64,000 nucleotides of DNA from an uncultured bacterium. Its GTDB lineage: Bacteria; Zixibacteria; MSB-5A5; CAIYYT01. The notes beneath the pieces are model-generated. The model saw nothing but the letters and a program-made list of their open reading frames with translations. It was not told the DNA's origin and did not search any database. The translations under genes and the position numbers were made by a program. The stretch is from positions 608,001-672,000 of the forward strand of contig CAVSCK010000003.1 in NCBI GenBank assembly GCA_963726455.1, in the 5' to 3' direction. This document shows positions 36,135 through 47,664 of the stretch, in pieces. Positions within the stretch are counted from its first letter, which is position 1; the number at the start of each line of letters is the position of its first letter.

Positions 36135-38359
36135 ATGGAGCATCACGTGGAACACATCTACCTCGACTATAACGCAACCACCCCGATTCATCCGGAAGTT
36201 GCCGATGCCATGACTCCCTTATCTGCGGCAGCACTTCGGCAATCCCTCCAGTTCGCATTGGTTTGGTGTGCAAACGCGCAAAGCGGTCGAAAATGCGCGC
36301 GCCCAGGTAGCGGATATGCTGAAGTGCGAACTCGACGAAGTGGTTTTCACTTCGGGTGGCAGCGAGTCGAACAACTTCGCCATCAAGGGTTATGCACTTA
36401 AGCATCGCGACAAAGGTAATCACATCATTACCTCGCAGGTCGAACATCCGGCGGTGCTGGAGGTCTGCGAGTATTTCGAGACTCTCGGTTTTGAGATCAC
36501 TTATCTGCCGGTTGATGAATTCGGCCTGGTTCATGTTGACGATGTCGCCAGGCGCAATTCGCCCCGACACGATTCTGATCTCGATCATGCAGGCCAACAA
36601 TGAAGTCGGCACGATTCAGCCGATTGCGGAAATCGCGGACTTGGCGCACAAACGTGGAATTGTGATGCACACCGACGCCGCTCAGGCCGTCGGCAAGATT
36701 CCCGTGAACGTACCCGCGACTTGCGCGTGGACATGATCAGCATCGCCGGACACAAACTGTATGCTCCCAAAGGCATCGGTGCACTCTATATCAAACGCGG
36801 CATTCAACTGCAAAAAATCATCCACGGCGCATCACACGAAAGAAACCTGCGCGCCGGTACTGAGAATGTCCTCGAAATCGTGGGGCTTGGCAAGGCCTGC
36901 GAGATCGTCGCACGTGATCTCGAACTCAATCATCGCCACACGAAAACGATGCGCGATCTGCTGGAAAGTAGGTTGAAAGAACTCCTCCCCTTCTGCCGCA
37001 CAAATGGTCATCCCGAAAAGCGGCTGCCAAATACACTGTCGATTTCTTTTCCCGGCATTGAGGCCAACACGATCATCTCAGAACTGGAGCAGGTCGCCTG
37101 CTCGCCGGGTGCTGCATGTCATTCCGACAAAGTCATCATGTCCCATGTTCTGAAAGCTATGGGCATACCGGTCGAATTTGCGATGGGCACGATTCGTTTT
37201 TCCACCGGCGCCATGACCACGGAAGCCGAAATCGAGCAGGCGGCGGATGCGATTGTATCAACCGTCAGTCGTCTTTCCCCGACTGCCAAGAAGATTGTCC
37301 GTCAAGACCGACGCTGACGAAGACAGTCCGCTTGACCAAATACACTCATGGACTCGGCTGCGCGTGCAAACTTCGACCTCAGGAGCTGGAGAAAGATTCT
37401 GGCGTCTCTGCCGCGTTCGACTGATGCGAATGTTCTGGTCGGCGCCGAATCCTCCGATGATGCCGCCGTCTATCGAATAAGCGACACGCTCGCCATTGTG
37501 CAAACCGTCGATTTCTTTACGCCGATCGTTGACGATCCCTATCACTTCGGTGCTATCGCTGCCGCCAATTCCTTGAGTGACATCTATGCGATGGGTGGCA
37601 AGCCGCTCTTTGCGTTGAGTATCGTCGGCTTTCCGTCCAATCGCTTGCCGATGAGCGTGCTCCAGCGAATCCTCGCAAGGCGCTGCCGACAAGGCAAAGG
37701 AGGCCGGTATCAGCATCATCGGCGGCCACACCGTCGATGACACCGAACCCAAATACGGACTGGCTGTGTCCGGCGTGATCGATCCCAAACGAATTCTGAC
37801 CAACAACAAGGCACGTGTCGGCGACAAGCTGATTCTGACCAAACCGATCGGAACCGGAATCATAAGTACCGCCATCAAACGTCAGATGGCTGATACCACA
37901 CTTTCCAAGACTGTGATCGAAATTATGAGCCGTTTGAACAACACCGCCGCGGAAACGATGCTGAACTACGATGTTTCCGCAGTGACCGACGTCACCGGAT
38001 TCGGGCTGCTGGGACACCTCAAGGAGATGTCTGTCGGCAGTAAGGTCGATGCGCAAATTGACTCACAGCAGGTACCCCTGATACCGGGTGTTGCTAATTT
38101 TGCCTCATCGGGCGCAATCCCCGGTGGTACCGAAAACAACCTCGATTACGTTAGCCCGTACGTTCAATGGCGTGAAGATATTCCCAAAGTCACGCGACTT
38201 ATCCTCTGCGATGCTCAGACCTCAGGCGGATTACTAATTGCTGTGAATCCCCGCGATGCCGAAAAGCTTCTTGCGGAACTGAAGGCAAAAGGCATAGCCG
38301 AGGCGGCCATCATCGGCGAGATTACGCAGACAGGCACAGGTAAAATCGAGGTCGTCTAG
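36135..38359 (+). CDS. selD: Probable NifS/IscS-type cysteine desulfurase - selenophosphate synthetase fusion, several frameshifts
   Basis: [42 protein letters not shown]; then [39 protein letters not shown] and DAQTSGGLL; start ATG 36135 or GTG 36147. Confidence 0.8.
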
Positions 38360-38465: not shown

Positions 38466-40390
38466 CTAGGGACAACTTGCACAGGGAGCCGGACCGCCCG
38501 AGAAGATGTAGCTGATGAGATAGACGACGTCCGAAATATCAACTCCGCCGGCACAATTCGCATCGGCTCTCGCGATCGGATTCGGCGCCGGGCCGCCCGA
38601 GAAGATGTACGCAATTAGAAACACACCGTCCGAAATATCGACCGCACCGGAAGCATCGGCATCACCACAGGTGTAAGGCGGCGGCGGCGCATCGGTAATC
38701 TTCATACTGCAACTCATTGTATCGACCTTGGACGGCACGCTGGCATCAGCGGTGGCGATTGTGAAGTAATAGGTCGCTTTGTAAGTCGGCGTGCCGGTGA
38801 TTGTTCCTTCGGTGCCGCCGGTAAAGGTCAGACCGTACGGCAGATCGCCGCCGACAAACGACCATTCATACGGCGCTGCGCCCCCGACTACCTGTAACTG
38901 GTAGGAATAGGGAACTTCTTTGTACCCATCGGGAATCTGATATGAGATGATATGCACTTCACCGTCGCAGTGGTCACCAATGCCGTTGTCATCTTCGTCT
39001 TCCTGGAGTGGGTTATAAACGTACGGACAGTTGTCGCATGCATCTCCCAGACTGTCATTGTCGCTATCCGATCTGCGAGGCATTACTCGCAAGCAGGCAG
39101 TTATCAACCGTATTCGGGATGCCGTCGCCGTCGAAATCATTCGTGTTGGCAATCGTCATCAACCATGCCACTGACGCCTTTACCATCCGCGTCATATACT
39201 CGAAATTCATGTGGGTCGTGCTGTCGCGTGGGCCGTGATAGTAAGTTGAAAAAGTGTACTCTGCCAGGAAAATGCCGTCATATCCCAACTGCGTGAACGG
39301 GAAATGATCGGAACCACTTGACCATCCCGCCAGATGACCGGTTATGCCGACCAGCGGCTGCGCAATGTTGATCCATGTTTGCGCGTAGCGGCTGCTGCTG
39401 CCATAGTAAAGATTGGAGTGCGCATTGTTGGACTCATGCGCGATCATATCCATATTGAACACCACCAGAATCTTGTCATGCCGGCCAGCGGCTTCCTGGG
39501 CAAAATGCGTCGAGCCGTTCAATCCCGTCTCTTCGGCATCGAATGCGACAAACAACACGGTCACGTTCAGAGTGGAATCCTTGAGCACGCGCGCCATTTC
39601 CAACACTCCCGCCGTTCCGGAGCCGTTATCGTCCGCGGCCGGACTGGCTGACACGCCGTCATAGTGACCGCAGACTACTACATAGACATCCGGGAGATAC
39701 TGCTCCGACTTTTTTCGCGACGACATTGAAGCCCGGCTTGGTCGTGCTCCCGACCTGAAAATCGAACGCATCCAGCGTCACGTCGTCATAACCGAAGCGA
39801 TGGAAACGCTGTACGATCGTGTCACGCGCGGCGTAAATGTTCGGCGTTCCGGCAGCGCGGCGATAAAACGCCTGCAATTGCTGCACGTAGTGCGTCAATG
39901 AATCCTGGTTGACCTGCTCCATGACGCCCTTCAGTCTTGCCAAATCGATACTGATCTTCTCCTGAACCACTGACGGCCGGTACGTGATAGCAATCGGCAA
40001 TCGCGGCACCGGCATAACATCCGTGGCTTCGGTGCCCTGTGCCAACACACCCGGGTCGACTTTGAACAGCCGCAATTGTTCCTCAGAAAACACGAGCTGG
40101 TATCGACTCACATTGAATTGATCCATTCGATGATCCAGGGCGAGTTCGTCACGACGGACATTCGCCGCCAGCAATTGCGTCGCCAGCCCGGACTGATTGA
40201 GCTTGGTAACCGCTGTCGGATCGGCTAGTACCAAATACCCGTCGCGCACCGCCACAATCGGCTCGGCGCCGACACTCACCAGCTTTTCGGCGTCAATTTG
40301 GCTTTGAACAGTAACCTTATAAAGATCGGCGGCCCCCGCAGAGGATACAAAGAGAAGAAAGAACGACAGAATCAGTAGAAATTGTCTCAT
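38466..40390 (-). CDS. Secreted M28 aminopeptidase with TSP3-like Ca-binding repeats, Ig-like domain and dockerin-like domain (frameshifts near 39705 and 39070)
   Basis: Signal peptide MRQFLL; GHYD, ADDNGSG, AEETGL, NMDMI, SDH; GDACDNCP; GDLPYGL; two DISD.V.LI.YIFSGG repeats. Confidence 0.85.
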
Positions 40391-40568
40391 ATGTTGATGC
40401 TCCAACAAAGGATGACGTGCTTTGGGCAAGTACCATTTTTCACAATATATCATAAAATTCTCGGTCTGTAAAGCTCATATATTGGCACGGTATGCCTTTT
40501 CGGATGTCGTACTGATTAGGTCGGCATTTGCGATCAGAAACTGACAGCTCTTGAAAGCGAGATGACTC

Positions 40569-40910
40569 ATGAACTCGTTCGATTGGACAAACGGATTCCC
40601 GGCGGCCATCACGGTCTGCGATAACGAAGGCATCATTCTCTCGATGAATGCCCGGTCTATTGAGACGTTCGCGAAGGATGGTGGCGCCGCGCTCATTGGA
40701 AAGAGTATTCTCGATTGTCACCCCGAACCGTCGCGCACTAAACTTCGCGAGCTCCTCGCCGCCGAGCGCAGCAACTGCTACACGATTGAGAAGAACGGCG
40801 TACACAAATTGATCTACCAGTCGCCCTGGTATCAGGATGGCAAGTACGCCGGCCTCGTCGAAATCTCGATGGAGATTCCGCACCCTATGCCGCATTTCGT
40901 CCGCACCTGA
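40569..40910 (+). CDS. Stand-alone PAS domain protein
   Basis: ITVCDNEGIILSMN and LIGKSILDCHP. Confidence 0.8.
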   Translation: MNSFDWTNGFPAAITVCDNEGIILSMNARSIETFAKDGGAALIGKSILDCHPEPSRTKLRELLAAERSNCYTIEKNGVHKLIYQSPWYQDGKYAGLVEISMEIPHPMPHFVRT

Positions 40911-40951
40911 TTCTGCGGCTTGCGAATCGCGCCACTAGTTCGGTGCCGGAA

Positions 40952-41026
40952 CGTAACTTGCGCAGAAATCTATCCGCTTCTTCAGCGGCGGATGGTTGTA
41001 CTCCCAGAACTCGATAAACGCCGACG
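40952..41026. repeat. Left copy of 75-bp direct repeat (duplicated 3' end of the M48 peptidase gene)
   Basis: Matches 43655-43729 with 2 mismatches. Confidence 0.92.
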
Positions 41027-41068
41027 ACATTTTGTTGGAATGGTTGCTCGTCTTCACAAAGAAAGGGC

Positions 41069-41097
41069 TTGACAAACAACGTACGGCATTATATGAT
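41069..41097 (+). promoter_or_regulatory. Near-consensus sigma70 promoter of the radical SAM cassette
   Basis: TTGACA-17 bp-TATGAT, followed by GGAGG SD before ATG 41125. Confidence 0.7.
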
Positions 41098-41124
41098 TTA
41101 TGGGGCTAGGGGAGGCAGAGTGGT

Positions 41125-42516
41125 ATGACGACAAATCGGTGGGCTGTTTCTTCCTTCAATTTCATTGTTCCCGTTTCTGACGAGAAGCACGTGGCGTACA
41201 ACGCGTTTTCGGGTGCACTCGCGGAGTTGGACGCCAAACAACTCGCCACTTTCAAAGACATATTGCAGGACCCAGAGGAGTATCTTCAACGTGCCGACGC
41301 GGACACATCCCTCTTTGCATCGATCGTCACTGCAGGATTCATCCATGATGCCGCAGTAAATGAACTCGATCTTATCAAGACAAAATCCGCACTCAATAGA
41401 TTCAATACCGAGCAATTTCATCTCACGATAATGCCGACTTTGGCCTGCAATTTCGAATGCCCATATTGTTACGAGAAGCAGGAACCAATCCTGATGTCAG
41501 ACAGCACTGAAGACGCCCTGGTGAGTTGGGTACAAAAGCGTGCAGAAGTTGCCCGAATCTTCACAGTCGCTTGGTTCGGTGGAGAACCATTATTGGCCTT
41601 AGACCGCATAGAGAGCACATCAAACCGCTTTCGAGCAATTTGTGAACGGCGAGGCATAAACTATTGTGCTAGCTTAACAACTAATGGCTACTTGCTCAAT
41701 GATCACGTGTGTGATAGACTCGCAGAACTTGGTATAGTGGGCGTACAAGTGACTATAGATGGCCCCAGGCATATTCACGATGTTCGCCGATATCTTCGCG
41801 GACGGGGTCCCACATTTGATCGCATTGTCAAAAATGTAGAGCACTTAGTCATCACACGACCTGAAATCGCCGTCTGGATACGAGTCAATTGCGATGAGAG
41901 CAACATTGACGAAGTCGGCCAAATCTTTGACCAGCTACCGTCACTGCTGGTGCAGCGAACAGATATCTATTTTGCCTTTGTATATTCCTGCCAGAGCTTT
42001 CTGGGCAACGCGGAGGATGTTGACGCAGCATCAACATGTGATCCTCATGGGAGCGCTGACTTGGAATTTAGGAAGAAACTTCGCGCCCTCCAATTGGAGA
42101 GTGTGAGAAGGAGGCGGGCCGTGAATCCATCGCCCGTCACGAAATTTGTGTTCAGGCCTCGCTGGGCCTATTGCGAAGCCGACTATGCGAACAAGTTCGT
42201 GGTTGATCCCAGGGGAGACTTGCATAAGTGCACTGTCTCATTCAGCCCGGAGTTGCGTGTTGGTAGGCTACTTCCGAACGGCGACGCGTTGTTTGACTTG
42301 CCCAAGCTTTCGATTTGGCTATCAAAGGACGCCTTCTCCTCTCCAAAATGCACCTCCTGCAAAGTACTTCCACTTTGCCTCGGTGGATGCCGCTCCGCGA
42401 CCTTACAGAATATTTCGGAAGGTAGATGCGCGACCTTACTCACGCCGGAGGAAGTTGAAAGGAGTCTGGGCTCCCTTTACGAACTTGTGAAATGCAGTTC
42501 CGGGGGGTCTGTATAG
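41125..42516 (+). CDS. Radical SAM/SPASM enzyme, probable peptide maturase
   Basis: CNFECPYC, WFGGEPLL, TTNGYLL, QVTIDG; SPASM C..(GDLHKC)..CTSCKVLPLCLGGC..C; ~90-aa N-terminal extension (YNAFSGA). Confidence 0.92.
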   Translation: MTTNRWAVSSFNFIVPVSDEKHVAYNAFSGALAELDAKQLATFKDILQDPEEYLQRADADTSLFASIVTAGFIHDAAVNELDLIKTKSALNRFNTEQFHLTIMPTLACNFECPYCYEKQEPILMSDSTEDALVSWVQKRAEVARIFTVAWFGGEPLLALDRIESTSNRFRAICERRGINYCASLTTNGYLLNDHVCDRLAELGIVGVQVTIDGPRHIHDVRRYLRGRGPTFDRIVKNVEHLVITRPEIAVWIRVNCDESNIDEVGQIFDQLPSLLVQRTDIYFAFVYSCQSFLGNAEDVDAASTCDPHGSADLEFRKKLRALQLESVRRRRAVNPSPVTKFVFRPRWAYCEADYANKFVVDPRGDLHKCTVSFSPELRVGRLLPNGDALFDLPKLSIWLSKDAFSSPKCTSCKVLPLCLGGCRSATLQNISEGRCATLLTPEEVERSLGSLYELVKCSSGGSV

Positions 42517-42627
42517 CAGCAACCGCCCCCTTGGAACCAATTCGGCAGAAGCAATGCAAGACTATGTGGGTGGAACAAGATGTTCCGCCTGATTCTAGAC
42601 TCCTAAACACCGAGGGAGGTGAAACAC

Positions 42628-42741
42628 ATGAATCTCATGTTGCGTCCTCAATCATTGGAAGTGTGCGAACTCGTTGAGTTGCAGCCCATCATGGCACTCA
42701 ATATCTTGCTCTGTGGGCTGTGCTGCGTTAGAGTGACTTAG
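42628..42741 (+). CDS. 37-aa Cys-rich peptide, candidate RiPP precursor (MNLMLRPQSLEVCELVELQPIMALNILLCGLCCVRVT)
   Basis: Translated by hand; strong GGAGGTGA SD ending 5 nt before ATG; lies just after the rSAM gene; followed by a hairpin. Confidence 0.75.
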   Translation: MNLMLRPQSLEVCELVELQPIMALNILLCGLCCVRVT

Positions 42742-42773
42742 CGATTCGGCACACACTCCGAAGCCGAGTGACA

Positions 42774-42799
42774 GCGGCGCAGCTGTGGGGCTGCGCCGC
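42774..42799 (+). other. GC-rich stem-loop after the peptide gene (mRNA stabiliser or attenuator)
   Basis: GCGGCGCAGC-tgtggg-GCTGCGCCGC perfect 10-bp stem, no U tract. Confidence 0.6.
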
Positions 42800-42896
42800 G
42801 TACTAAAGAGAGAGATCAGGTGATGTCATCGCGAGCCCGTAGTACAGTCGCAAATAGGTCTTGCCTCAGTTGCTCTAATCACGGGACATTGGGGAA

Positions 42897-43550
42897 TTGT
42901 CAGTGAAAACTCAGGTTGTCATAATCGGAACTATCCATCTCAGCGCATCCCTCTTTCCTCATTACGGTTCTTGGGTCCGGCAATCCGTAAAGAGATTGCA
43001 CCCCGACATAGTCTGTGTGGAACTCTCCCCTGAGCAGCTTGCAGGCGAAACAAGCATGGATTCGAAACCTGAATACTCTTCAGCCATTTTGCCGTCTGCG
43101 CGTGAAATAGGCGCAATCTTGGTTCCCATACAGCCTGTTACATCAGTAGGAGAGGAGTTTGAGCGGGTTAAGCTTGAATTTCTGGAGTACATAGCGTCCG
43201 ACAATCTTGAGCGGGAGCGGTGGGAAGTGTTCTGCCAATTAGAATCTGCCTGGCTGACGGGACTTACGGTTTGGCTGCAAGACGTACCGTCTATAATTGA
43301 TTTGCAGGACATCCGGCTAGACACGCTACTCTTTGAGCCGTGGTACTCCACGTTGTCAAGATTCTTTCCGGGCTTCGAGGCATTCTGGCGACCATGGAAT
43401 CAAGAATTACTTGGAGCTACTATCCAGGCCGTGCGAAGTCATCCTGGAAGACTCATACTCATAACAGTGGGAATGGCACACAGGTATTGGTTGCGCAAAG
43501 GTCTGCGAGCTCAGGAAGAGGTCGAGTTGCGTGATCTAAGGGAGTTTTGA
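42897..43550 (+). CDS. TraB/GumN/Tiki-superfamily-like protein, putative metallopeptidase
   Basis: IIGTIH, PDIVCVE and ITVGMAH motif pattern; no signal peptide. Confidence 0.55.
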   Translation: MSVKTQVVIIGTIHLSASLFPHYGSWVRQSVKRLHPDIVCVELSPEQLAGETSMDSKPEYSSAILPSAREIGAILVPIQPVTSVGEEFERVKLEFLEYIASDNLERERWEVFCQLESAWLTGLTVWLQDVPSIIDLQDIRLDTLLFEPWYSTLSRFFPGFEAFWRPWNQELLGATIQAVRSHPGRLILITVGMAHRYWLRKGLRAQEEVELRDLREF

Positions 43551-43631
43551 GCCAGCACAATCGCTTCTTGATTTACTCAGTGGAGGCGGCTTAGAAATGT
43601 GTCGGATTCTCTCGAAACAACACTCTCCCCA

Positions 43632-45053
43632 TCAAGGTTTGCTATTGATAGTCTCGTAACTTGCGCAGAAATCTATCCGCTTCTTCAGCGGCGGATGGCT
43701 GTACTCCCAGAACTCGACAAACGCCGACGGTTGCGGATTGGACAGATTCTCATTCGCCATCTTGACGAACGCCGAAATTCCGCTCGCCGGATCGTGTGTT
43801 AGGTCGAGCGCAAATCTGTCGGCATCATGTTCGATCTTGCGGGAAAAGCCGTTTATCACCGGATCCAGAAGGAACAGCATCAATCCCAACATGAGCATCA
43901 ACAACGGCAGACTGGCGATGTCCCCGACCGCTGAAAATCCGAAACTCGCTCCGAATTTCGCCATTACCCATCCGATCGTCTTGAAGACAATGAACAACAA
44001 AATCAGAAATATGACACTGAACAGCGCGATGCCGATCCAGATATGGTTGAGAACGTAGTGCCCCATCTCATGGGCCATCACAAACGCAACCTCATCAGGG
44101 GTCAACTTCTTGATCGTTGTGTCCCATAACACAATTCGCTTGGAGCCAAACAGCCCCGTCACATAGGCATTTATCTTCTGCGTCTGCGAGCTCATATCGA
44201 CTTGATAGACACGGCCGCCCGAAATTCCGGCTTTTTCCGCCATGCCGAGAATTCTGGCTGACAGCACCTGATCCTGCAGAGGTTCGAACTTGTTGAACAT
44301 CGGTTCGATGAACACCGGCAGAATTACCATGACGATTATCATGATCGGAATCGCGGCCACACCGATCCAGAGCCACCAATCACGCGCGCGCCTGCGAATG
44401 CCCCAGTAGGCGAACGTCACCAGCACCGTCAATGAAAGCGTCATTAGGTAGCTCGATTTGATCGTGTCGGCCAGCCAGTTCCCGAATGTTTGCGTCGACA
44501 GATTGAAATGGTGTTCGATCACGAAATCGCGATAGTACGACAGCGGCAGCCCCACCACTTGCAAAATCAACGTCAGTATGACGATGAAGAACACTTGCAC
44601 AGCAAGACCGCGATGCCGCCCGGCAAGCATCCCCACGACGCCCCAGGCGACTGCTATGAAAATCCCCCCCGCCCCTACCGGCTGCTTGTCGGTCGCGCTC
44701 ATGAATGCCAACAGCAACGCAATCAGCAGCGCCAGACCTCCTCCGAGCCACATCGGCGCCGATTGTTGGTGCAATTTGTCCGTCAGCTTCTCGGAGACGC
44801 TCCGTATTCTGCGCGAAAAACCAAACCAGAGAATACCCGCCAACACCAGCAGACTAAACGCAGTCGAGAAGAAATACCAACCGTCCCTGAAGTTCGAAAA
44901 TATAATTGCCTGCTCGACCTTGTCGGGTGTCAGCACCGACGTAATCTCGCCTGGAACTGTGCTCAGGTCGACGCTCTTGTCAATCCCGATCGTGCTGATG
45001 CCAAAGATCAGAAACAGCAGCATCAAAAGTACTGGCCAAATAACCTTCTTCAT
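43632..45053 (-). CDS. M48 (Ste24-like) membrane metallopeptidase
   Basis: NAYVTG, RIVLWDT, AHEMGH (HExxH), EHDAD and SHPP. Confidence 0.92.
   Translation of the reverse strand: MKKVIWPVLLMLLFLIFGISTIGIDKSVDLSTVPGEITSVLTPDKVEQAIIFSNFRDGWYFFSTAFSLLVLAGILWFGFSRRIRSVSEKLTDKLHQQSAPMWLGGGLALLIALLLAFMSATDKQPVGAGGIFIAVAWGVVGMLAGRHRGLAVQVFFIVILTLILQVVGLPLSYYRDFVIEHHFNLSTQTFGNWLADTIKSSYLMTLSLTVLVTFAYWGIRRRARDWWLWIGVAAIPIMIIVMVILPVFIEPMFNKFEPLQDQVLSARILGMAEKAGISGGRVYQVDMSSQTQKINAYVTGLFGSKRIVLWDTTIKKLTPDEVAFVMAHEMGHYVLNHIWIGIALFSVIFLILLFIVFKTIGWVMAKFGASFGFSAVGDIASLPLLMLMLGLMLFLLDPVINGFSRKIEHDADRFALDLTHDPASGISAFVKMANENLSNPQPSAFVEFWEYSHPPLKKRIDFCASYETINSKP
43655..43729. repeat. Right copy of 75-bp direct repeat, inside the M48 gene 3' end
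   Basis: Matches 40952-41026 with 2 mismatches. Confidence 0.92.
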
Positions 45054-45219
45054 ACAATATCCTCGATTCGCATTTTCGCGCCTTTTCGCATATCTAAACT
45101 ACGCATTGAAACCGCTCGCCGCAAGAATCCGTGTGCCCGCCGCGTAGTATTTTCGTCCAGGAACGTTTGCGCGTGCAATGCGTTAAAACGTGCGTATCTT
45201 ACTTTTGGAGGTATGCGAC

Positions 45220-47664
45220 TTGACCAATCACAACACGACCATTACTGACAAGGGGATTCGCCGTGTAACAGTGCCGATTGCGGGAATGACCTGCGCCGGC
45301 TGCGTGGCGCGCGTCGAAAGCGTGCTGAATAACATTGACGGCGTCGCCGAGAGTCGGGCCAACCTTGCCAACCATCAGGTCAGCATCGCGTACAATCCAA
45401 ATCGCGTCGATATTTCCAAGATCGCTCACGAAATGGAAATCGTCGGCTATCCGATTAGTTTCCAGGAGACCCATATTAACATTACCGGCATGCACTGTGC
45501 CTCTTGTGTCCTCAACGTCGAAAAGCACATCTCCTCCATCGCCGGAGTGGCCGAAGTCGAAATCAACTTTGCCGCCGGTACCGGGGTAATCAAACATGTT
45601 GACGTCGATGATCTGCCCGGGCAATTACAGACGTTGTTCGCCGGTAGCGGCTACGATGTCGCCGTCGAAGGAGAAACGTCACAGGCAATTGACCCGCTGC
45701 TCGTCGAGATCAACCAACTCAAGCGCCCGCTTATCTTCAGTATATTTGCGTCCGTCATCGCCCTGGCAATCATGATTGGTGATTATGTTCATTTCGCCGG
45801 CATTGATATGGCAAGCTCGGCCTACATCCAGTTCGCCTTGGCTACGGCGGTCTATTTCTGGGGCGGGCTGAGATTCCACAAAGGCCTCTGGCATTCTATC
45901 AAACGGCGCTCCGCCGACATGGACACTTTGATTTCGCTCGGCACTTCGGCTGCGTACTGGTACAGTGTGATCATGCTTTTCGCCCCCAGCTTCTTCCACA
46001 GTGCCGGCGAGATGCCCGAATACTACTTCGACAGCGCCATTATGATCATCGCGCTAATCTTGCTGGGACGGTATATCGAGACCCGTGCCAAGTCACGAAG
46101 CTCCTCGGCGATCACCGGGCTCTTGAAGGCGCGTCCTGATAAGGCCTCCGTAATACGAGACGAAGTTGAGACATCTGTCGCTTCAATGTCACTTGCACCC
46201 GGTGATATCGTCCGCGTTCGTCCCGGTGAGCGCGTGCCTGCAGACGGAAAGATCATCAAAGGCAGCGGTTCCGTCGATGAATCCATGTTAACCGGCGAAG
46301 CCCTCCCTGTCGAAAAAGAGATCGGCAGTGAAGTGACCGGCGGCACGATTAACGTCAGTGGCAGTTTCGACTTTGAGGTCACCAGTTCACAGAAAGACTC
46401 GCGACTCTCCAAAATTGCCGACATGGTTTCGGCGGCGCTCAGCTCCAAGCCGGCTATTCAAAAGATGGTTGATCGTATCGCCTCCGTTTTTGTTCCGATC
46501 GTTATTGGTCTCGCAATTCTCACCCTGGCCGTCTGGCTTATTGTAGGCGCACAATTCGCCTTCGCCCTCAAGAGTTTCATCGCCATCATGATCATTGCCT
46601 GCCCATGCGCACTTGGGCTGGCTACACCGATGGCGGTAATGGTCGGTGTCGGCAAGGCCGCATCACTCGGAATTTTGTTCAAGAGTGGCGACACGTTCGA
46701 GCAGATCGCCGGATTGAAAACGCTCTTCTTCGACAAGACCGGCACGCTTACTCAGGGACGATTCGAAGTCGTGGAAGTTAAGCCGTTCGGCAATGCTGAC
46801 ACATCATTCCTCCGCCTAGCCGGAGCGGTCGAGAAACTCTCCGAACATCCACTTGCCAAGGCCGTGGTCTCTTACGCCGAATCTCAACAGGTAGCTCTTC
46901 CTCAGTGCGATGACTTCATGTCGCTCGCCGGAGCTGGCGCCTCCGGTATTGTGGAAGGCAAGAATATCCTGCTGGGCACTCTGAAATTGATGCAGGCGCG
47001 CAAAGTCGACATAACCGCACTCGGGCCGGAATCCGCAATCAAGAACAATGACGGTCGAACTTTGATCTACGTGGCAGTCACCGGAATTCTGAACGGCTAC
47101 ATCGCACTCGCAGATACAGTCAAACCCGAAGCTGCGAGTACGATTTCGCAAGTTCGAGCGCTTGGTATCGATCCCGCCATCATCACCGGCGACAGCATGT
47201 CAGCCGCCCGGCGGGTCGGAAACGAACTGGGGATTGATCAGATCAGCGCCGAGTTACTGCCGCAACAAAAACTGACCGCCATTCGCGAACGCAAAGCTTC
47301 GGGCGAAAGAGTCGGCATGGTCGGCGATGGCATTAACGATGCGCCGGCACTCGCGCTCGCCGATGTCGGTATCGCTTTATCCTCAGGCACCGAAATCGCC
47401 GTTGAGTCGGCGTCGGTCACCCTGACCGGCCACCAAATCGACCGCGTGCCGACCGTGATTCGGTTGGCGCGCGCAACTCTGCGCAACATCAGGCAGAATC
47501 TTTTCTGGGCGTTCTTCTATAACGTCGCCGCCATTCCACTAGCTGCAGGATTGTTCTACCCCCTCTATCACGTTCAATTGTCGCCGATCATCGCCGCCGG
47601 GGCGATGTCTTTCTCTTCGCTGTTTGTCGTGATGAATGCGCTGCGATTGCGCCGATTTCGCTAG
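45220..47664 (+). CDS. copA: Cu(I)-translocating P1B-type ATPase
   Basis: Two GMxCxxC HMA domains, [21 protein letters not shown] and MxxSS; TTG start after GGAGG. Confidence 0.93.

Follow-up and report, generated by a model that had tools for sequence, protein, structure and literature searches.

A 37-residue open reading frame beside a radical SAM/SPASM enzyme gene is a probable precursor peptide gene in a Zixibacteria genome

The window analysed here is a 64,000-nucleotide stretch of contig CAVSCK010000003.1 from an uncultured bacterium of the Zixibacteria, and our subject is a 37-amino-acid (aa) open reading frame (ORF) within it, placed between a gene for a radical S-adenosylmethionine (rSAM)/SPASM enzyme and a gene for a TraB/Tiki-like protein. 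An earlier note on this DNA had read the ORF as a leader/core precursor for the adjacent enzyme, and our analysis partly supports that reading: the ORF is probably a genuine precursor gene of the rSAM/SPASM enzyme, and its product would be a thioether-type (sactipeptide- or ranthipeptide-like) ribosomally synthesised peptide with post-translational modifications (RiPP). The gene is most likely a real precursor because it is located where related bacteria keep the Cys-rich substrate peptides of such enzymes. Our main argument is that the ORF ranked first in its genome for likeness to those peptides falls in the 380-nucleotide (nt) gap that is syntenic with them. Gene order, the homology of both enzymes, the common peptide layout and the boundaries of the insert that carries these genes were established directly. 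The feature had not been named before, and it is unsurprising: a further member of the Cys-rich precursors of rSAM/SPASM enzymes, a kind already known.

Results

Homologous clusters hold Cys-rich peptides in the same slot

We searched 61 relatives for the rSAM enzyme and found some match in 45, with 35% identity for the best non-self match. Across a phylum set of 285 genomes, a close rSAM subfamily (E ≤ 1e-70; 300-384 bits, 35-38% identity) was present in 10, the genome of the window (G000) included. All nine of the other genomes have Cys-rich small ORFs with strong Shine-Dalgarno (SD) sequences downstream of the enzyme gene and on the same strand, and at seven of the nine loci M-x-Φ-Φ-x-x-P lies at the N-terminus of these peptides or close to it; the peptides of the two f13 loci begin otherwise.

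Two of these genomes have the same extended order, namely the rSAM gene, six (G169) or two (G175) genes for 37-41-aa peptides such as MQLMTIPLLLTSDDVLMPMPELSGDCVIALGCCCKHLTVS, a 246-253-aa gene homologous to the 217-aa TraB-like gene of the window, an ATP-binding cassette (ABC) ATPase gene and an ABC-2 permease gene. A fourth cassette was found in G173, where an interrupted rSAM gene is followed by a 41-aa ORF ending WGNCCIHIS and then by a TraB-like gene. The order seen in the window, with a homologous rSAM gene, one to six Cys-rich peptides of 37-41 aa and a homologous TraB-like gene, is common to these three other genomes. In the window the ORF begins 111 nt past the rSAM stop codon on the same strand, and the whole spacer between the two enzyme genes measures 380 nt.

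The peptides of G169, G175 and G173, together with the database entries P0122-P0130, make up an unnamed set that can be written as M-[EQH]-[FL]-x-x-x-P ... C-x(3,4)-G-x-C-C-x-x-[LI]-[TS]. The window peptide is like this set in its slot between the rSAM and TraB-like genes, its length within 37-41 aa, its strong SD and its downstream hairpin. In a nine-row MAFFT alignment that includes it (37 aa against 37-41 aa), M1, P7, G30, C32, C33 and T37 are invariant, and the layout is common from end to end, with an N-terminal M-x-[FL]-Φ-x-x-P and a C-terminal G-x-C-C-x-x-Φ-T. Identity to the relatives is 16-30%. Their invariant first core Cys has a counterpart in C29 of the window peptide, but the Gly spacer is 3-4 residues shorter.

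The ORF also stood out within its own genome. Among the 95,611 start-to-stop ORFs of 25-70 aa, the N-terminal motif (^M.[FL][IML]..P) occurs in 115 and the C-terminal motif (G.CC..[LIVM]T near the C-terminus) in six, and the window ORF is the only one with both, where independence would give 0.007; these motifs were chosen or loosened after the data had been seen. Global alignment to the relatives, which uses no motif, put the window ORF at the head of 37,524 when they were ranked on mean score, level with the second, and tenth on best single score. When one best score per source genome was averaged it again ranked first (28.0 vs 23.7), with alternative starts of the same ORF at ranks 3 and 6.

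The proteins closest to the window enzyme are P0003 (53% identity), P0004 (46%), P0005 (43%) and P0006 (44%), followed by P0007 (57% over 64% of the query) and P0008 (48% over 69%). We built a quick maximum-likelihood tree from the 26 rows left after a length filter had removed L124 and L049, with the careful search unfinished; in it the window enzyme groups with P0003 and P0006 (SH-like approximate likelihood-ratio support 98), sister (96) to a clade containing G169 and G175. A scan of genome contigs gave 45 loci with relatives of the enzyme, at no more than 39% identity on partial segments and 31% over full length, and a scan of metagenome contigs gave 56 loci, the best at 32%. The three same-genus genomes hold matches at the level of paralogues only (E 2.9e-8, 3.0e-48 and 1.0e-47).

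A profile search of 1.84 billion representative proteins returned five matches of peptide length; the window peptide was among them and the two G175 peptides were not. The same peptide profile also matched P0131, a database protein of 248 aa (E 1.6e-5) with four repeats carrying G-C-C-C-P-P-L-A-A-K, which may be either a match by chance or a Cys-rich substrate of the repeat type. A sister rSAM subfamily (L125, L128, L129, L130 and L124, in G207, G205, G206, G167 and G214) is accompanied by downstream peptides with M-[DE]-[FIV]-[LMI]-[IFL]-[QE]-P leaders and cores of the G-C-x-C type. Four of its five loci have a conserved gene of about 280-300 aa 5' of the rSAM gene; L124, the remaining locus, has a 291-aa ORF upstream.

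The peptide gene and its signals

The translation of the ORF is identical to the one claimed in the earlier note, and the protein collection lists the exact 37-aa sequence, as the product of the window itself. The composition described there was likewise confirmed from the sequence. The first half is acidic and contains Pro (E11, E14, E17, P7 and P20, with C13 also present), the C-terminal half is hydrophobic with C29, C32 and C33 in a CxxCC arrangement, and there is no F, W, Y or H in the whole peptide. The last 17 residues, with their three Cys, are strongly hydrophobic. The note had taken the lack of aromatic residues as an argument against cyclophane chemistry; this is reasonable but weak, as F or W does occur in the relatives (G175, for one, has G-W-C-C and G-F-C-C).

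The DNA around the SD and the start of the ORF reads ...GGGAGGTGAAACACATGAATCTC..., and it contains the expected SD, one base to the right of the position implied by the note's start at 42613. Throughout the genome this 8-mer has 117 copies, against 111 expected; a start codon lies close by in 35, and only 11 of those 35 open an ORF of at least 100 aa, so the 8-mer by itself is not evidence; the position and layout of the ORF do go beyond chance. Copies of the 8-mer also stand before three peptides next to rSAM genes on the genome's contig C1, and before peptides in L002, L124, L128, L129 and L132.

Downstream, the hairpin that had been described as 10 bp is present with one pair more, a G-U. 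The 89-nt stretch 3' of the ORF stop folds at -37.9 kcal/mol (z = -3.28), and one of 200 shuffles was equally stable. No T-run follows the hairpin, and a terminator scan of 40300-43700 found 0 sites; the hairpin is possibly the 3' end of the transcript, a stabiliser or a partial terminator. Stable hairpins also lie 3' of several related peptide genes, and those of L131 and L132 are comparable to the one in the window.

Family resources gave no name for the peptide. No Pfam or NCBIfam model matches it, none of nine aligned peptides (window and relatives) matched NCBIfam, and Rfam returned nothing for 40800-43700 at E up to 1. The nearest Protein Atlas clusters are SapB/AmfS-type lanthipeptide precursors at 0.81-0.82, which is under the meaningful level. 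A second copy of the peptide was not found in its own genome at E up to 10.

The upstream enzyme is a relative of peptide maturases

The rSAM enzyme carries the NCBIfam SPASM domain TIGR04085 (46.4 bits, above the cutoff of 27). Its best full-length NCBIfam matches are peptide maturases without exception: TIGR04463, the CrpC-type maturase and the best full-length family (268.8 bits, cutoff 525), the Clo7bot maturase (246.1 bits, cutoff 600), CefB (186 bits, cutoff 600), PapB (104.5 bits, cutoff 340) and the SCIFF maturase TIGR03974 (71.8 bits, cutoff 425). Given its score against that cutoff, the enzyme is not a member of TIGR04463. In an alignment of 29 homologues, C108, C112 and C115 are invariant, as are seven C-terminal Cys, including C409-x2-C412-x5-C418-x3-C422.

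In the AlphaFold2 model (predicted local distance difference test, pLDDT, 85.8), residues 12-70 form three strands followed by three helices, and in this model the N-terminal domain has the topology of a RiPP recognition element (RRE). The best solved structure for the full-length enzyme is thioether-forming CteB (5WHY; Foldseek E 1.3e-18), which is also the best by sequence. Complex prediction of the peptide with the full-length enzyme scored 0.21, against a mark of 0.32.

The promoter-like site 28 nt 5' of the rSAM start codon is no more than a match to the consensus, in a region that has six such sites against 3.0 +/- 1.5 in shuffles. We also considered a precursor upstream of the enzyme and rejected it: the ORFs in 40896-41124 have neither a Cys-rich tail nor the N-terminal motif, and this stretch is mostly repeat copy or promoter-like site.

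The same genome has further clusters of this general kind. On contig C1 (35444-38700) a 453-aa rSAM is followed by MRFIEQPMPDVINKCPIYQWWCPFGYYPISPRD, a 344-aa rSAM and two more M/V-[RK]-FIEQP peptides, so that the three peptides begin MRFIEQP, MKFIEQP and VRFIEQP. A third cluster, on contig C4 (937082-940543, minus strand), has two MIYLIDP peptides upstream of rSAMs of 416 and 370 aa. Since the peptides of both clusters carry such starts, the M-x-Φ-Φ-x-x-P N-terminus is recurrent across the enzyme group; it is also found in a Thermoanaerobacteraceae metagenome-assembled genome, an Olsenella genome and others, and a plausible role for it is that of the RRE-docking strand. Tandem copies of the MIYLIDP type occur in several genomes of the same family.

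The downstream gene encodes a TraB/Tiki-like protein

The 217-aa protein is a full-length homologue of the proteins encoded 3' of the peptides in G175 (BLASTP E 2e-35) and G169 (E 4e-30), with 29% identity. Its score with Pfam PF01963 (TraB_PrgY_gumN) is 15.1 bits, and those of its homologues are 26.6 (G175) and 21.2 (G169), under a gathering cutoff of 26.8. G11, H14, E42 and H195 are invariant among seven homologues, and two of the four non-self database homologues bear the JGI name "pheromone shutdown protein TraB". The top fold rows for the AlphaFold2 model (pLDDT 91.6) are a Tetrahymena complex IV subunit (Z 11.3), and there are further matches to ChaN (Z 8.1), EreC (Z 7.8), an RRSP-type toxin domain (Z 6.9) and HopBA1 (Z 6.8). 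With Z 7-8 to folds of the ChaN/EreC group, a distant kinship of the modelled protein to the TraB Pfam family is plausible.

TraB/PrgY are pheromone-shutdown proteins of enterococci, and Tiki is a Wnt protease. The window protein contains G-T-x-H and a second G-x-x-H as well as a conserved Glu, residues which may correspond to the catalytic motifs of PrgY and Tiki; it differs in being about 220 aa long with no membrane domain seen, and is a putative protease. Its family profile is present in 27 of the 285 phylum genomes, G000 included. At 11 other TraB-like loci (L140-L148, L150 and L151) filtering by motif turned up no peptide of this sort in the nearest 1.5 kb or so, with large ORFs there only eyeballed, and the TraB-like family is therefore wider than the cassette.

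The genes lie on a bounded insert

A 75-nt direct repeat, 73/75 identical between its copies and with a spacing of 2703 nt, flanks the genes described above (Table 1). G002, a genome of the same genus, has a single copy, which is the 3' end of its M48 peptidase gene at the junction with a PAS-domain gene. In a DNA search of four relatives, the PAS gene (40569-40910 in the window) directly abuts M48 in the same-genus genomes G002 and G003, and nothing at that junction matches window 41040-43664, the sole match being 44 nt of an rSAM motif within a paralogue. G001 (84% complete) has its PAS match beside the match to the metal ATPase, without the cassette; the insert was not found in the three same-genus genomes searched. 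Because of the flanking repeat and the abutment of PAS and M48 in G002 and G003, we conclude that the promoter-like site, the rSAM gene, the 37-aa ORF, the hairpin and the TraB-like gene form one insert of about 2.7 kb. GC content is 0.48-0.53 within it and about 0.55 on either side, and its interior lacks genes for an integrase or a transposase. The M48 peptidase and the metal ATPase had been candidate members of the cluster; we rejected them as ancestral flank next to PAS in G002 and G003.

Table 1 Features of the insert and its flanks (window positions)
Feature	Position	Strand	Details
Direct repeat, left copy	40952..41026		75 nt; duplicates 3' end of M48 peptidase gene; left edge of insert
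Promoter-like site	41069..41097	+	TTGACA-17-TATGAT; 28 nt 5' of rSAM start codon; 11/12 consensus matches
Radical SAM/SPASM peptide maturase gene	41125..42516	+	463 aa; RRE-like N-terminal domain (model); Pfam Radical_SAM E 6e-17
Extended SD	42615..42622	+	GGAGGTGA; 5-nt spacer to ATG
Putative precursor peptide ORF	42628..42741	+	37 aa, MNLMLRPQSLEVCELVELQPIMALNILLCGLCCVRVT; ATG 42628, TAG stop 42739-42741
GC-rich hairpin	42774..42799	+	11 pairs (10 Watson-Crick + 1 G-U), 4-nt loop; no T-tail
TraB/Tiki-like protein gene	42897..43550	+	217 aa; candidate leader peptidase/processing enzyme; homology to post-peptide genes in G175, G169
Direct repeat, right copy	43655..43729		75 nt; inside 3' end of M48 gene
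M48 peptidase gene	43632-45053	-	
Heavy-metal (copper-type) P-type ATPase gene	45190-47664		2.4 kb from peptide ORF

Several reading frames upstream of the insert are broken. A class-V aminotransferase gene is split into 36356-36736 and 36721-37317 (both plus strand), and an AIR-synthase-related gene into N and C halves at 37348-37740 and 37766-38359 (plus strand); the splits at 36356-38359 are frameshifts, pseudogenes or assembly indels. On the minus strand, three overlapping ORFs at 38466-40453 (38466-39152, He_PIG/dockerin/TSP_3; 39064-39771, Peptidase_M28; 39659-40453, no family) look like pieces of a single gene for a secreted multi-domain peptidase, separated by frameshifts. The PAS-domain ORF (plus strand; PAS_4, E 2.8e-6), conserved in same-genus genomes, overlaps a 151-aa minus-strand ORF (40440-40895) that matches no family and is probably spurious.

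Discussion

How firmly the peptide belongs to the related set

Several results weigh against reading the ORF as a working precursor. A profile hidden Markov model (HMM) of eight related peptides gave the window peptide 1.5 bits, equalled by 731 of 5000 shuffles, and the ORF is missing both from the 1860 genome-wide matches of that HMM and from the 1582 of a 12-peptide HMM. With hhalign only nine C-terminal columns aligned (P 0.0071, probability 5.5%), and the short-query tBLASTn near homologous rSAM genes that the earlier note had suggested (132 loci, 676 kb) matched only the ORF itself. Within the alignment, the near-invariant F3, L9 and L36 are L, S and V in the window peptide, its first core Cys abuts G30 instead of standing 3-4 residues earlier, and the Cys at position 13, in the leader part, is extra. 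The insert has no ABC exporter genes, unlike G169 and G175, which also have several peptide copies. As for the enzyme, it is under the cutoff of every full-length NCBIfam model, and its closest relatives (P0003-P0008) are known as protein sequences only, with no orthologue close enough for a selection test within reach. Finally, indel errors in the assembly are possible because two genes 4-6 kb upstream are interrupted.

The failure of HMMER, BLAST and hhalign to find a significant match to the related peptides would fit an ORF present by chance in the spacer that separates two genuine genes, with the SD-like 8-mer and the hairpin serving the flanking genes or nothing. Such a view can also draw on the unremarkable frequency of the 8-mer, most copies of which start no long gene, and on the N-terminal motif that so many ORFs of the genome carry by chance. 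We nevertheless think it unlikely. A chance ORF would have had to come first of all those aligned globally while lying in the syntenic slot, and to be the one place where both terminal motifs meet; it would moreover leave the inserted rSAM without a substrate gene, as the ORFs of the upstream spacer offer neither Cys-rich tails nor the N-terminal motif.

The missing transporter genes bear on a different account, in which the ORF is a decaying or inactive relic of a real precursor that lost its exporter, drifted from the consensus and is no longer processed or useful. The single peptide copy against two to six in relatives, the shortened core, the substituted near-invariant residues and the interrupted genes nearby would all agree with decay. 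This is improbable in our judgement, since the rSAM and TraB-like ORFs are intact with their catalytic and cluster residues all conserved, the peptide retains a perfect SD, its start and the six invariant columns, and the N-terminus of the G173 peptide is a variant too. A real small hydrophobic protein that is no substrate of the enzyme (a membrane peptide, an immunity factor or a CxxCC metal-binding peptide) might be suggested by the hydrophobic, Cys-bearing C-terminal 17 residues and the nearby copper-type ATPase, and is very improbable, as the ATPase and M48 genes are ancestral flank beside PAS in the cassette-free G002 and G003 and the layout matches that of peptides always accompanying the rSAM.

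Comparison with known systems

With these alternatives weighed, a precursor gene is the reading we prefer, and its closest parallels are the SCIFF peptides and ranthipeptides (CteA/CteB, Tte1186a/Tte1186 and freyrasin/PapB), in which, as in the window, a precursor with a short leader and a Cys-rich core lies beside an RRE-bearing rSAM/SPASM maturase; the best structural match of the window enzyme, CteB, is itself a SCIFF maturase. SCIFF peptides have a Cys-Thr thioether, reported as Cys32-Thr37 or Cys32-Thr34 (PMC8326336), and the five-residue spacing of the former is identical to that of C32 and T37 in the window peptide. The systems differ in that SCIFF peptides have six Cys in about forty-five residues, against four in 37 here, and in that the window maturase scores under the SCIFF and PapB cutoffs. 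In addition, the window peptide is without CxxxD repeats, its gene is downstream of the enzyme and it has a TraB/Tiki-like partner.

The top-scoring NCBIfam family points to a second parallel. In methanogens, Cys-rich proteins receive ranthionine cross-links from CrpC, a genuine member of TIGR04463. This enzyme is an rSAM that has an RRE as well as three [4Fe-4S] clusters, and its substrate, CrpA, has a leader-like N-terminus and C-terminal cysteines (PMC13692751). CrpA is unlike the window peptide in being a large repeat protein with C-x-x-Q/D motifs, whereas the window substrate would have 37 aa and a single G-x-C-C-x-x-V-T. For the third component, a leader-cleaving role has been proposed for Tiki/TraB peptidases in graspetide loci where SPASM enzymes are encoded as well (PMC8939145). 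A full-text literature search for Clo7bot, OhkG, FlmE and Cys-every-fifth gave nothing related among the matches listed.

A possible route to the product

Binding, chemistry, cleavage and expression of the peptide are what we infer from the above, and the steps of docking, thioether formation and leader removal are proposed because of the CrpC, SCIFF and Tiki/TraB literature cited. The rSAM and peptide genes would be co-transcribed from the promoter-like site, the hairpin ending or stabilising the transcript, and the 8-nt SD would allow efficient translation of the peptide. Its extreme N-terminus (M-N-L-M-L-R-P...) could then dock on the RRE-like domain as an added beta-strand. The enzyme, predicted to have a radical SAM cluster together with two auxiliary [4Fe-4S] clusters of the SPASM type, would abstract a hydrogen atom in the C-terminal core, and Cys sulfur would be joined to carbon to give thioether links of the sactionine or ranthionine type. 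The likeliest participants would be the family-invariant C32, C33 and T37 in G-L-C-C-V-R-V-T, after which the downstream TraB/Tiki-like protein may trim the leader.

A bolder version of this scheme, which is conceivable and in our view rather doubtful, would make the insert a minimal, self-contained and transferable RiPP cassette of about 2.6 kb, comprising promoter, rSAM, one precursor, hairpin and TraB/Tiki-like leader peptidase, with the 75-nt repeats as a flanking target duplication, and its product a short hydrophobic signal peptide with a C-terminal ring formed through the vicinal Cys pair. TraB/PrgY proteins are linked to hydrophobic peptide pheromones in enterococci, a link that the signal-peptide idea echoes.

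Precursor genes as short as this one are routinely missed in annotation, and an rSAM cluster cannot be interpreted without them. The peptides described here make up a small and rare precursor set whose core has vicinal Cys-Cys and whose TraB/Tiki-like partner recurs. In the window, the exact boundaries of the insert of about 2.7 kb define a unit ready for cloning and leave the M48 peptidase and the metal ATPase outside the system; together, the recurring partner and the neatly delimited insert make a good experimental target. If it is true that the TraB-like protein cuts the leader, it would add a new protease family to the RiPP leader peptidases, a role that has so far only been suggested.

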